The notes: a model not told the origin generated them from the letters alone. A DNA stretch of 32,000 nucleotides from Nanopusillaceae archaeon (GCA_049974095.1 JBMFJD010000006.1:1-32000), one strand, 5' to 3'; shown: positions 8,709 through 31,996, counted from the stretch's first letter. Numbers and translations: made by a program.

Positions 8709-9269
8709 TTAACCATTAGTTAACTTTATAAATTCATTTTGTATATTTGCTAAGTGTTTTAGTACTATTGATTTATCTAAATATGTAAATGATACGATGT
8801 TATGCTTAAAGTCTATTGGGGCAGACCTGTCAACTATTTTAATCCTGCCCTCTTTGTTTACTTTATTCATAAAGAAATCGATAAATAACCCTAATACTGG
8901 TGTGTATTCATCAGCACCAATATATAGCCATATATTTATTGGTTTGTTATAGTCCTCTAGTACATCACCATTTACAATTACTGGTCTGCCATTTTCATCT
9001 AGTAATACATCATAATCTATTATCCATTTATATCCCGCTATCTCTTTGTCTTTATGTTCTTTTAACATTTGATCGATTTCTTGGTATGGGAATACTAGAG
9101 TATCTGGATAGTTTACAGTTAAGTATATACCTCTGTCACCTATAGATACATCAGATGTTTGATAGAAAAATTTTAAGAGATCGTTAAATACTTTTTCAAT
9201 TTTCTTATACTTGTTGTATTGGTTGTCCTTGTTCATACTGGTTTTGTAGGATTTGTAGTAATAATTCAT
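8709..9269 (-). CDS. hypothetical protein (186 aa)
   Basis: ATG ORF. It overlaps the upstream gene by 65 nt; an alternative ATG at 9236 reduces the overlap to 32 nt. No motif recognised. Confidence 0.65.
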   Translation of the reverse strand: MNYYYKSYKTSMNKDNQYNKYKKIEKVFNDLLKFFYQTSDVSIGDRGIYLTVNYPDTLVFPYQEIDQMLKEHKDKEIAGYKWIIDYDVLLDENGRPVIVNGDVLEDYNKPINIWLYIGADEYTPVLGLFIDFFMNKVNKEGRIKIVDRSAPIDFKHNIVSFTYLDKSIVLKHLANIQNEFIKLTNG

Positions 9270-9651
9270 TATCTGATATTAAATCTTTTGAATCTATTGG
9301 TAAGCCTAATTCTTTCATCTTATTAATTAATTGTAGTGTCATGCTTTTGTCAATCCTTTCTAGTAAGGATAATGAAAATATTATGCCTTGATGGAAATTT
9401 TTGTTTAGGTTTGGTATGATATCTTTTCTTGTTATTATGTATAGTGATCCTACTTTGTTTATTGCATATTTATCTAGATTGTTTATTACCCTATCTAATA
9501 CTCTGTGGTATACTATCTGGGCTACTGTCCTGCTAACCTGTTCATGTTTTATTATTTCTGGTATTGATAGATATAGTACGCCTTTCTGATCTACTTCTTT
9601 TAAAAGAGAATTTACATGTAGTTCAAGTTCTTCTTTACTTATCCTGCCCAT
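9205..9651 (-). CDS. hypothetical protein, possible winged-helix DNA-binding protein (148 aa)
   Basis: ATG ORF. The segment LSIPEIIKHEQVSRTVAQIVYHRVLDRVINNL..SLYIITRK looks like an HTH plus wing. Confidence 0.6.
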   Translation of the reverse strand: MGRISKEELELHVNSLLKEVDQKGVLYLSIPEIIKHEQVSRTVAQIVYHRVLDRVINNLDKYAINKVGSLYIITRKDIIPNLNKNFHQGIIFSLSLLERIDKSMTLQLINKMKELGLPIDSKDLISDNELLLQILQNQYEQGQPIQQV

Positions 9652-9740
9652 AAAATATTTTATCGATAAATATGTTTTTAAATATTTGTTTTCATGTGTG
9701 ATGTTAGATTTATGAAAATTTAGTATATTTATTATATATC

Positions 9741-9914
9741 GTTTAAAGAAAACTAGTAGTATTGAAAGAAATGTATTGAAGGAAATAGATCCGTTTAAAG
9801 TAAACTAGGAGTAGATGAACCCGATAAGGGGGATTGTTAAAACAAACCTAGAAGGTTTGAAAGATGGGGCTCGATAAGAGCCGACGGGTTATAAAAAACC
9901 TAGAAGGTTTTTTT
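9741..9914. repeat. four degenerate 27-28 nt CRISPR-repeat-like direct repeats, period 52/43/52 nt
   Basis: R1 9741-9768 GTTTAAAGAAAACTAGTAGTATTGAAAG. R2 9793-9820 GTTTAAAGTAAACTAGGAGTAGATGAAC. R3 9836-9863 GTTAAAACAAACCTAGAAGGTTTGAAAG. R4 9888-9914 GTTATAAAAAACCTAGAAGGTTTTTTT. Inter-repeat segments are 24, 15 and 24 nt and carry small GC hairpins with GATAA-type loops. Confidence 0.55.
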
Positions 9915-10824
9915 ATTCTATTTTTCCAAAGATTACTATTAATGGTTTTTGTAGATCTTTATCTTCTGTAAATACTTTTGCGTTTGTTATAGATCTTAAG
10001 TACATGTCTATTAGTCCTTGACCTTCATAGAATTTTTTAACACCTTCTCCCATTGTATAATATCTCATACCTTTAGATGCTTCTCTTATATCGGACATAA
10101 ATAGACCTGTGTTTAGTAATACGTATTTCCATGCCTCATATACATATTTGTTTTCTGGTGTTTGGTCTATTCTTTTACCATTAAATAATATATAGTAGTC
10201 CCATGGTTTCATCACGTACTCTACCTTGTCAACACCTATTTTATATTTAAGGTCTAATTCTATATCACTGCCATTTTCTACCCTATTTTCACCAAATATT
10301 CTAATTAATTCATTTTTTACATTTGTAAATTCTTTTCTTGATAACCAGTTTATGAATTTATCATCCCACAGTACTTTTGCGTTTAATTTTGTTAATGATG
10401 TTGTAACTAATAGATTCCAGTCATCATTTTCTTCCATTGATACATAACCATCATATCTGGCAGATACGTATAGGTTTTTCATTGTATTACCTGTTGATAC
10501 ACCAACATCTGGTGTTATATAACATACGTTTTTACTACAGGTATCTTCTAATTCTTCTACTAATTCTTTTAATCTTGGGTTTCTATTATGGAAAATATAA
10601 TAATTGGAACCTGGGGTAAAATCATTACCTGTATTTCTACTAATTGCTCTTAATGATGCATCTGTAAATCTAAATTTTTTACCATCACCAGTTTCACATG
10701 TATAAAAGTTATAACGAACTTTACTGGTCTCTAATCTACAGACCATTTCGTTAGAATTTTCGAATATCTTTCCTACTATGTATAATGAATATGTTGATGA
10801 GTCTATTATGTATGTATCTGTCAT
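9913..10824 (-). CDS. hypothetical protein (303 aa)
   Basis: ATG ORF. Its stop is embedded in hairpin R4 (9893-9913). No motif recognised. Confidence 0.7.
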   Translation of the reverse strand: MTDTYIIDSSTYSLYIVGKIFENSNEMVCRLETSKVRYNFYTCETGDGKKFRFTDASLRAISRNTGNDFTPGSNYYIFHNRNPRLKELVEELEDTCSKNVCYITPDVGVSTGNTMKNLYVSARYDGYVSMEENDDWNLLVTTSLTKLNAKVLWDDKFINWLSRKEFTNVKNELIRIFGENRVENGSDIELDLKYKIGVDKVEYVMKPWDYYILFNGKRIDQTPENKYVYEAWKYVLLNTGLFMSDIREASKGMRYYTMGEGVKKFYEGQGLIDMYLRSITNAKVFTEDKDLQKPLIVIFGKIE

Positions 10825-21829: not shown

Positions 21830-22435
21830 ATGAGTATGGAATACAAACTTGAGGTACTAACTCCAATAATAGGTGGTTTATCTAATGATTATTTTGATTT
21901 TAGGATTTTTGCTAAAATTGATTTCTCTGATTTTAAAATAATACCAAAGATAAAGTTAACTAGTGAGGATTTGGCCGGATACGAGAAAGAACTAGAAGGA
22001 AAAGATAAAGATGCAGTGCTTAAAAAATTATATGAGAAGAAAAAAGAAACAATAGAAAAAGAATTTATTAAAAATGGGTATCTAAAATTAGCATACATAT
22101 TTCCCAGAAAACATTATGAAATATCATCCATAAAAACAAAAGAAGATTATATAAATTGGATAGATTATCATGTAGAATTCTCAAGAGGACTGGTTATCGC
22201 ATTACAAAAAGATCATAAGATAAAGGTTAAAATACAGGAGATAAAACCAGTAAAAATAAATATTGGTGTAAGTGTGTTTTACTATGATAACATAAAATCT
22301 GTTATAGCATACGAATCTATATTACCAGGTTCAATTCTATCAGTTAGATTTGATTCCAAAGTAGATACAGATATTACTGTGAATATTGGCGGATTAAAAA
22401 GATTTGGTTATGGTAGGGTGCTAATAAAAACATGA
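21830..22435 (+). CDS. RAMP-like protein (Cas7/Csm3/Cmr4/Cmr6-type motifs), orphan
   Basis: N-terminal YKLEVLTPIIGG fits the RAMP h-x-h-x-TP-h-h-G-G strand-loop. C-terminal NIGGLKRFGYGRVLIK fits the glycine-rich loop GGxxxxG[YF]G followed by a hydrophobic strand. 201 aa. No other cas genes are nearby. Confidence 0.4.
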   Translation: MSMEYKLEVLTPIIGGLSNDYFDFRIFAKIDFSDFKIIPKIKLTSEDLAGYEKELEGKDKDAVLKKLYEKKKETIEKEFIKNGYLKLAYIFPRKHYEISSIKTKEDYINWIDYHVEFSRGLVIALQKDHKIKVKIQEIKPVKINIGVSVFYYDNIKSVIAYESILPGSILSVRFDSKVDTDITVNIGGLKRFGYGRVLIKT

Positions 22436-31405: not shown

Positions 31406-31996
31406 ATGGTAAAAAAAATATTAGCAGCGCTTTTATTAATCATGGCACTATCAATACCAATATTTTCCGAATATGTAGAGGCGAAACTAGTAGGAGTATA
31501 TAGCATACAAGTAGGGTCAAATAAGTTAACAATTTCTAATGGTCATGTTGATCTACCATTTATGACAACAAATGGAACACTAGTAGTAGAAACAAAGCAT
31601 GGAAACTTTAATATGGTATTTCATGGAGAGATGACAGTAACTCAAGAGGGAACAAATATGACAGTAGTAAAGTTTGTACATGAAAATAGAGTAACATATA
31701 TCAATATAGCTGTATACGAGAATATGACAAAGATAACAGAAAAATTCTTTGAGCACTTTGTACATACATATGGAGTAAATCTAACACAAAACATTACAAT
31801 AAGACCAGTTGATAATGATACATTTGTATTAGAAGCAAAGCAAAATGCTACTGCAATGTTGTTATGGTTTATACCAATACGTGTGGTAATAGGGGAACAA
31901 ATGTATGTAAATGCAACTAATGGAAATGTAGAGAAAGTAGTATATATAAGGCCATGGTGGTGGTTCTTAGTATTTGGATATAAGACTGAACAATGA
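31406..31996 (+). CDS. secreted/anchored glycoprotein candidate (196 aa)
   Basis: Signal-like KKILAALLLIMALSIPIF. Sequons NGT, NMT, NLT, NIT, NDT and NAT. C-terminal PWWWFLVFGY hydrophobic segment. Confidence 0.7.
   Translation: MVKKILAALLLIMALSIPIFSEYVEAKLVGVYSIQVGSNKLTISNGHVDLPFMTTNGTLVVETKHGNFNMVFHGEMTVTQEGTNMTVVKFVHENRVTYINIAVYENMTKITEKFFEHFVHTYGVNLTQNITIRPVDNDTFVLEAKQNATAMLLWFIPIRVVIGEQMYVNATNGNVEKVVYIRPWWWFLVFGYKTEQ

Follow-up and report, generated by a model that had tools for sequence, protein, structure and literature searches.

Mimicry of CRISPR repeats by RNA has recently been recognised as a counter-defence of bacteriophages. The viral solitary repeat units RacrIF1 and RacrIC1 act as RNA anti-CRISPRs (Camara-Wilpert et al. 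2023, PMC10651486), and the screen for such units left out hits associated with other partial repeats (PMC10651486). Liu et al. (bioRxiv 10.1101/2024.10.29.618823) define viral Cracr RNAs by at least 9 matches, proximal to the protospacer adjacent motif (PAM), to the promoter of cas or creT; the published Cracr arrays are of types I-C, I-E and I-F and come from bacteria (bioRxiv 10.1101/2024.10.29.618823). On the host side, CreA and CreR are degenerate mini-CRISPRs of type I-B, I-E, I-F and V-A loci (PMC8501985; bioRxiv 10.1101/2023.03.10.532045). Where creA has two psiRs, psiR1 keeps the 5' handle and psiR2 the 3'-handle part, and psiR2 may be fused with the terminator (PMC8501985). Spacer-like parts measure 23–27 nucleotides (nt) in host CreA/CreR and have a median of 19 nt in viral Cracr RNAs (bioRxiv 10.1101/2024.10.29.618823). 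Here we describe a locus of four degenerate repeats in a 32,000-nt stretch of DNA from a Nanopusillaceae archaeon (GCA_049974095.1 JBMFJD010000006.1:1-32000), referred to as the window, which corresponds to positions 1–32000 of contig C6 in a 764-kb bin of 48 contigs (G000). The repeats derive from the type I-B CRISPR repeat of the host lineage. By analogy to the systems above, the locus is most likely a CRISPR-repeat mimic borne by a mobile element, which would work like the Racr, Cracr and CreA-type RNAs.

The locus is located in the gap (9652–9912) between two minus-strand open reading frames (ORFs) of 303 and 148 amino acids (aa). A repeat-family search (families D1 and D2) recovered four direct repeats, R1 to R4 (Table 1), with start-to-start periods of 52/43/52 nt. 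The intervals S1, S2 and S3 between them are thus 24, 15 and 24 nt long, as described in the original prediction from the sequence, except that R4 ends at 9915 and not at 9914. The stop codon of the 303-aa ORF is complementary to the 3'-most three bases of R4 (9913–9915). Identity between the repeats is 69% for R1 and R2, 78% over 32 nt for R1 and R3, and 91% over 23 nt for R3 and R4. A core, AAAC(C)TAGnAG, with the palindrome CTAG inside it, recurs in all units. The hairpins with GATAA loops, the 7-bp hairpin of R3 and the hairpin with T run in R4, which had also been pointed out, were all found again in the sequence and by RNA folding, and the whole 175-nt stretch folds on either strand. A long-range pairing in the C6 fold (GAUCCGU/ACGGGUU) was dropped because it is lost in the two other copies of the locus (C9 and L033, see below). 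The description as a GC-rich island holds only weakly, with a G+C content of 0.32–0.33 in the locus versus 0.22–0.31 nearby. No Rfam family matched the window at the gathering score, a permissive scan gave only chance-level matches (E > 3), and ARAGORN found no tRNA.

Table 1. Features of the repeat locus and genes discussed in the text (positions in the window; unit assignments are putative)
Feature	Position	Strand	Remarks
TATA-like box TTTATTATATAT	9728–9739	+	Directly 5' of R1; sequence reading
R1, putative psiR1 of unit A	9741–9768	+	24/28 to same-genus type I-B repeat; last 8 nt ATTGAAAG correspond to the 5' handle (8/8)
S1, spacer-like part of unit A	9769–9792	+	24 nt in C6; 18 nt in C9 and L033
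R2, putative psiR2 of unit A	9793–9820	+	First 12 nt identical to G005 repeat; first 20 nt 17/20; last 8 nt degenerate (3/8)
Linker	9820–9835	+	Small hairpin CCC-GATAA-GGG at 9820–9830; unchanged in all three copies
R3, putative psiR1 of unit B	9836–9863	+	C6 end TTTGAAAG, 7/8 to the handle; 4–5/8 in the other copies
S3, spacer-like part of unit B	9864–9887	+	Hairpin GGCTC-GATAA-GAGCC at 9868–9882
R4, putative psiR2 of unit B merged with two-way terminator	9888–9915	+	Hairpin, then T7 run at 9908–9914
148-aa gene	9205–9651	-	Divergently placed; no Pfam or PADLOC family; own TATA box at ~9675–9687
303-aa gene	9913–10824	-	Function unknown; found only on this element family
201-aa RAMP-fold protein (predicted)	21830–22435	+	Same element; 12 kb from the repeats

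When the DNA of 40 relatives was searched, genuine CRISPR arrays were found in genomes of the same genus and the same family. Repeats of this host lineage are 28 nt long, start with GTTT(A/C)A, end in TTAGAAATATTGAAAG and follow each other at a spacing of 66–84 nt. The original prediction had proposed a comparison of R1 to R4 with the repeats of co-occurring hosts. When they were compared with those of related genomes, R1 matched the type I-B repeat of the same-genus bin G005 at 24 of 28 positions and the repeats of G006 and G013 at 23 of 28, and R2 and R3 reached 20/28 each. R1 of the copy on contig C9 shares 25 of 29 positions with a second repeat type of G005. As a null model we used 30 order-2 Markov genomes of 764 kb each, the size of the bin. 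The best match to the G005 repeat in these simulated genomes was 21–23, below the 24/28 of R1. In the real bin 62 of ~1.5 million positions reach at least 20/28, and these include both R2 and R3, in register with R1. A position-weight scan of the whole bin ranked R1 of C6 first, and a repeat relic on contig C7 came ahead of R1 of C9 (rank 3). The likeness to CRISPR repeats noted earlier was thus confirmed. The additional likeness to Sulfolobales-type repeats was not: a Sulfolobales-like repeat present in the bin matches R1 at only 16/28. The system to which the host repeat belongs is present in the complete same-genus genome G006, where cas6b, cas4, cas8b, cas7, cas5, cas3, cas1 and cas2 adjoin an array of 27 repeats (G006:C1:504726-506525) with a leader of ~280 nt, making it type I-B. 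Both the true host repeat and R1 are predicted by folding to be unstructured. R1–R4 derive from the CRISPR repeat of the host lineage.

Further repeats were noticed in the bin and its relatives. The host core contig C7 carries a solitary 28-nt repeat at 174–201 on the minus strand (GTTTCAGAAGATTTAGAAATATTCCAAC), which matches the array repeat of G014 at 24/28 and is degenerate at its 3' end. No neighbouring repeats were found next to it, nor any cas genes in the bin; the repeat seems to be a remnant of a type I-B array that the host chromosome has lost. At G005:C132 522–820 (L076) an array end of five units has repeats which are all different from each other and spacers down to 30 nt, and at G013:C41 2348–2375 (L077) a lone near-perfect repeat is located in a host-like region. 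These degenerate or solitary repeats on the host side could be native CreA/CreR-like genes; in the cas locus of G006 a search for native CreA/CreR gave only chance-level position-weight hits. A related element in the same-genus bin (G005:C69, L079) has a single unit similar to R3 and R4 at ~990–1030 on the minus strand (GTTAAATCAAACCTAGAAGGTT with a T run), directly after the stop codon of a gene, where it resembles a two-way terminator hairpin. Three small CRISPR array fragments in the bin, on C44 (1–148), C21 (2520–2827) and C33 (314–408), have unrelated repeats which match R1 at only 13–17 positions. One of them is the Sulfolobales-like repeat, ending in GGAATTGAAAG. Their spacers have no match anywhere in the bin, and the fragments are probably DNA of other organisms binned by mistake.

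Two further copies of the locus were found, one on C9 with 84% identity to C6 and one on a metagenome contig of 2625 nt (L033) with 89%. The locus sits between the same genes in all three diverged copies. We compared the last 8 nt of each repeat with the handle ATTGAAAG across the copies: R1 matches at 7–8 of 8 positions, R3 at 4–7, R2 at 2–3 and R4 at 2. The 5'-handle end (A/T)TTGAAAG is kept in R1 and R3; R2 and R4 keep the 5' part of the repeat only, and R2 retains 15–17 of the 20 positions of the 3'-handle part across the copies. The degeneration therefore alternates and is not random. Because this alternating pattern fits the rule for creA with two psiRs, the 52/43/52 rhythm is best read as two candidate CRISPR RNA (crRNA)-like units, R1-S1-R2 and R3-S3-R4, with the 15-nt hairpin linker between them. 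Each of the two would have a psiR1 with the 5' handle and a psiR2 with the 3'-handle part, and in each the two degenerate repeats flank a short spacer-like part of 18–25 nt, S3 varying from 24 to 25 nt between copies. The remark that such intervals are too short for a working array is correct for interference. It does not apply to regulatory crRNA-like RNAs, in which 18–27 nt are normal (bioRxiv 10.1101/2024.10.29.618823).

The S3 stem was retained in C9 with a changed loop and with one C-G pair replaced by T-A (GGCTT/AAGCC), and it still folds (-6.4 kcal/mol in C9 versus -9.4 kcal/mol in C6). The stem is kept via changes on both sides, which points to structure rather than guide sequence as the feature retained. 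The 7-bp hairpin of R3 occurs only in C6 among the three copies. Likewise restricted to C6 is a 14-nt slip which duplicates the end of R1, reading GTATTGAAAGAAAT then GTATTGAAGGAAAT (9759–9786). It gives S1 of C6 a second copy of GTATTGAAGG and hence a second handle-like ATTGAAGG; C9 and L033 are without it.

C6 differs from the core of the bin in composition: its G+C content is 28% (28–31% for C6, C9, C11, C12, C13 and C16) versus 23–25% in the core contigs. All tRNAs of the bin are on core contigs and none on these six. C6 is collinear gene for gene with C17 plus C9, more distantly with C11, and with a third set formed by C13, C16 and C12, at protein identities of 30–90%. At least three related elements of up to ~60 kb are thus co-binned. 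The genes of C6 include one full and two partial MCM genes and a thermopsin gene and are otherwise mostly orphans; no terminal overlap that would suggest a circular contig was found. We infer that C6 is a mobile element, a virus or plasmid for which a capsid or integrase gene is not known, and consider this well supported. As had been stated before, no cas genes are adjacent to the repeats: none was found among ~30 ORFs across the window that were compared with Pfam or PADLOC. None of 18 other genomes of the family yielded the flanking 303-aa gene. Together with the composition and the sister elements, this agrees with what is expected of a Racr, a unit on a mobile element away from cas genes.

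With the Racr units the locus further shares the mimicry of the repeat of its predicted host (R1 lying above all 30 simulated genomes) and a promoter-like box upstream, and by analogy competition for Cas6 and Cas7 would be expected. It differs from them in having four tandem units, so that it is not solitary, and in being archaeal, of type I-B, with an unstructured repeat and with G+C hairpins in the intervals. Degenerate flanking repeats, short spacer-like parts, stacked units and a position outside a CRISPR-Cas locus on a mobile element are common to our locus and the viral Cracr RNAs and arrays. However, neither the G006 cas locus nor any of 21 genomes of the order gave C6 a promoter match of at least 9 PAM-proximal positions, and a conserved hairpin takes up one of the spacer-like parts. 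With CreA and CreR the locus has in common the psiR1-psiS-psiR2 build, an 8-nt 5' handle in psiR1, a psiR2 fused with the terminator, and the lack of a leader. These two belong to cas loci, where promoters of cas or creT are repressed by them; the C6 locus is carried by a mobile element, in a bin in which no cas genes were found, and no toxin partner or target is evident for it. The mini-arrays of the Saccharolobus portogloboviruses SPV1 and SPV2 (PMC11656645) are likewise array-like sequences without cas genes on archaeal hot-spring mobile elements, but their repeats are host repeats and their full-length spacers target sibling viruses, neither of which is the case in C6. Finally, the type I-B arrays of Nanopusillaceae themselves have the 28-nt repeat family, the orientation and the 8-nt handle in common with C6 and differ by identical repeats, spacers of ~38–56 nt, a leader of ~280 nt and adjacent cas genes. 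What sets the C6 locus apart is the element of a DPANN symbiont, the unstructured type I-B repeat, the putative two-unit tandem build and the hairpin-filled spacer-like parts. In the literature consulted we found no such mimic described on mobile elements of DPANN or nanoarchaeal symbionts, or against an unstructured archaeal type I-B repeat.

What has been shown is that the repeats descend from the CRISPR repeat, that the element carries them, that the units degenerate in alternation and that the S3 hairpin is retained. Starting from this, we propose that the locus is a small non-coding RNA gene on a Nanopusillaceae mobile element. Built from copies of the host type I-B repeat, it would encode repeat mimics serving as an RNA counter-defence element, either as a decoy or as a regulatory guide. 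We rate the chances of this proposal as even. On the plus strand the gene would run from the TATA-like box through unit A, the linker and unit B to the hairpin and T7 terminator in R4. Unit A would consist of R1 with the intact handle, a spacer-like part of 18–24 nt and R2 keeping only the would-be 3' handle; unit B of R3, a hairpin-bearing spacer-like part of 24 nt and R4. Cas6b of a host with a type I-B system would bind the RNA and cut it if necessary, and loading onto Cas5/Cas7 would follow. Cas proteins would in this way be drawn off real crRNAs, making the RNA an anti-CRISPR decoy. Alternatively the RNA could steer Cascade to a host promoter, like the viral Cracr RNAs; this variant is the less likely one and carries about a third of the weight within the proposal. 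We favour the decoy over the promoter guide because the best-kept features of the intervals are hairpins, and no target was found. Four readings had been offered side by side in the original prediction. Among them the repeat mimic or RNA decoy on a mobile element is now favoured in view of the mobile-element character of the contig; the decayed array is still a live rival.

The expression signals on the repeat-sense strand agree with this layout, the TATA-like box abutting R1 at its 5' side and the T7 run following the R4 hairpin. We infer transcription, the transcribed strand, binding of Cas proteins and an inhibitory effect. The spacing between TATA box and start was calibrated on the neighbouring leaderless 148-aa gene, in which the end of the TATA box is 24 nt from the ATG. 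On this basis a plus-strand start is predicted at ~9759–9763, where Cas6 would cut R1 (before 9761). Because the predicted start coincides with this cut, the primary transcript might already carry the mature handle at its 5' end, so that Cas6 would not be needed there; it is equally possible that transcription starts upstream and that Cas6 cuts afterwards. There may also be species of ~52–60 nt with AUUGAAAG at the 5' end. A scan with bacterial-type promoter and terminator consensus sequences, which is uninformative for archaea, missed the R4 terminator because its stem has only 2 G-C pairs.

If the proposal is true, the mimic assigns a family of orphan elements of ~60 kb to CRISPR-bearing Nanopusillaceae hosts where spacer matching failed. 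The locus is compact and can be synthesised. Its single intact handle, its three units of graded degeneracy and its spacer-like parts filled with hairpins make it a test case for what Cas6b and Cascade of type I-B need for the capture of a decoy.

Several observations weigh against the proposal. The type I-B cas genes of G006 have no tblastn match in the bin, which is 93% complete so that their absence is uncertain. If the bin is without cas genes, the element would meet a type I-B system only in other strains. Genes flanking the type I-B locus of G006 map to the end of C5 (60784–61071) and to C15:10016-10913, the latter without cas neighbours. This leaves two options for the CRISPR-Cas island: the strain does not have it, or it falls into an assembly gap. 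Neither the 152 spacers from seven arrays of the order (G005, G006, G013, G014, G019, G020) nor those of the array fragments in the bin (C21, C33, C44) gave a credible match to the element. No PAM-proximal match of S1 or S3 turned up in the cas locus of G006 or among the 21 genomes of the order, a set that does not cover the actual host strain and its cas locus. IMG/VR, scanned with four DNA patterns, the RAMP alignment and the flank protein, yielded nothing related; what matched were coding sequences of LEILK type. In addition the R3 handle is eroding in C9 and L033. The identity of the locus between copies (83–90%) does not exceed the 75–91% which the flanking genes show at their third codon positions, so that conservation alone does not demonstrate purifying selection. 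The whole account is computational, and the comparison of the locus rests on three close copies.

For a guide function there is no support so far. All variants of S1, S2 and S3 were compared with the bin, the G006 cas locus with its leader and the 21 genomes of the order without a credible match; against the sister elements C9, C11, C12, C13 and C16 there was no match beyond the homologous locus. Two target candidates were rejected as chance-level, one inside a ribosomal protein gene and one matching at 18/19 in C11 without repeat context. We also considered an origin from a tRNA fragment or attachment (att) site, since the linker hairpin contains a 12-mer, CCCGATAAGGGG, that also makes up the variable arm of a class II tRNA at G015:C2 1460–1545 (L085), a tRNA with three copies in G015. 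This origin was rejected: the tRNA-Ser arms of the G000 host read CCCCGAAAGGGG and the flanks mismatch. We judge the match to be a coincidence of small GNRA-like hairpins.

Several of these points would also be expected if the locus were a decaying relic, that is, a captured leader-proximal part of an array or a mini-array which drifts and is kept only as terminator of the 303-aa gene and as spacing for the promoter of the 148-aa gene. The copies differ about as much as third codon positions of the flanking genes, S1 has suffered indels, the R3 handle is worn in C9 and L033, and conservation does not extend to the hairpin of R3; solitary repeat relics also occur in host chromosomes (C7:174-201, G013:C41). 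Drift does not readily account, however, for four units in the same order in three copies differing by 10–17%, nor for a patterned degeneration that spares the handles of R1 and R3 alone. Paired changes have preserved the S3 stem, and a TATA-like box and a terminator frame the locus on the repeat-sense strand. We regard a mere relic as unlikely.

A second possibility is that the units act at the level of DNA, as operators or iterons for a protein of the element such as the putative winged-helix protein of 148 aa, the CRISPR likeness being ancestry only. The spacing of 52/43/52 nt corresponds to ~5, 4 and 5 helical turns, the core with its palindrome CTAG is common to all units, the region lies between two promoters and the 148-aa gene is the neighbour. 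But the N-terminal winged-helix leads of this protein are weak (template modelling score, TM < 0.5), and its homologue on C27 keeps the promoter without the repeats. The best-kept parts are furthermore those relevant to RNA, the 8-nt handle of R1 and the hairpin stems, and not the common DNA box, which makes binding sites of this kind improbable. Close homologues of the 148-aa gene were found in none of 300 genomes of the class; P0021–P0023 are more distant homologues.

The locus could also provide the RNA partner of the 201-aa protein encoded on the same element, forming a self-contained virus-encoded ribonucleoprotein instead of a mimic aimed at host Cas proteins. The AlphaFold model of this protein has a predicted local distance difference test (pLDDT) score of 92, and its Foldseek list is filled with CRISPR RAMP proteins, all weak (E 2e-3 to 0.1). 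An independent structural alignment gave Z-scores of 9.5 for Cmr3, 8.5 for a Cmr-beta subunit, 8.2 for Csf5 (type IV Cas6) and 8.1 for Cas6b. The protein is confidently predicted to have a RAMP fold, with no subfamily assigned. In a profile comparison with host Cas6b only the C-terminal glycine-rich motif aligns, at an E-value of 0.13 that is not significant. C6 and C9 both have the protein together with the repeats, and it is possibly a partner of the locus or a second CRISPR-derived part of the element. The 12 kb between its gene and the repeats and the lack of a subfamily argue against a partnership. The third sister (C13) has the protein, and no repeat mimic was found on its contigs. A search of the genome collection returned one distant RAMP locus (L091), again without such repeats, and the family comprises 16 homologue clusters among 1.8 billion proteins. 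We see only a slim chance that the repeat RNA belongs to this protein. Just as doubtful is the more specific model that the RAMP protein binds or processes both crRNA-like RNAs and that the complex poisons Cascade assembly or acts as an RNA-guided regulator without host cas genes. If it were true, the combination of RAMP protein and repeat RNA would be without precedent in archaeal viruses and among DPANN archaea.

That the locus is a working mini-CRISPR array whose crRNAs use host Cascade against competing elements, as in the portoglobovirus mini-arrays of Saccharolobus, is very improbable and largely refuted: although its place on a mobile element, the presence of several related elements in the sample and an orientation, promoter-like box and terminator like those of an array would fit, this reading is contradicted on every defining feature tested, since the repeats are 69–91% alike and in no case equal to a host repeat (within real arrays of the lineage the repeats do not differ), the intervals measure 15–24 nt versus spacers of 38–56 nt in those arrays, are the same in all three copies with point changes only and thus not strain-variable, match neither the sister elements nor anything elsewhere in the bin and form hairpins in two cases, and no leader or cas genes were found in the locus or the bin.

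The phage collection contained no match to the locus. Near the end of the window an ORF of 196 aa (31406–31996, plus strand) has a faint Pfam match to Acr30-35/AcrF1 (E 0.0047, 17.6 bits versus a cut-off of 30.5), which is probably noise. Within the locus itself a 20-codon ORF (MNPIRGIVKTNLEGLKDGAR, 9815–9877, plus strand) with GGAG upstream crosses the linker hairpin and R3. It is whole in L033 and probably not coding, because a 1-nt insertion cuts the C9 version to 8 codons. Its layout, with a Shine-Dalgarno motif, an AUG, GC-rich rare-looking codons and a hairpin, is faintly similar to that of the CreT RNA toxins.

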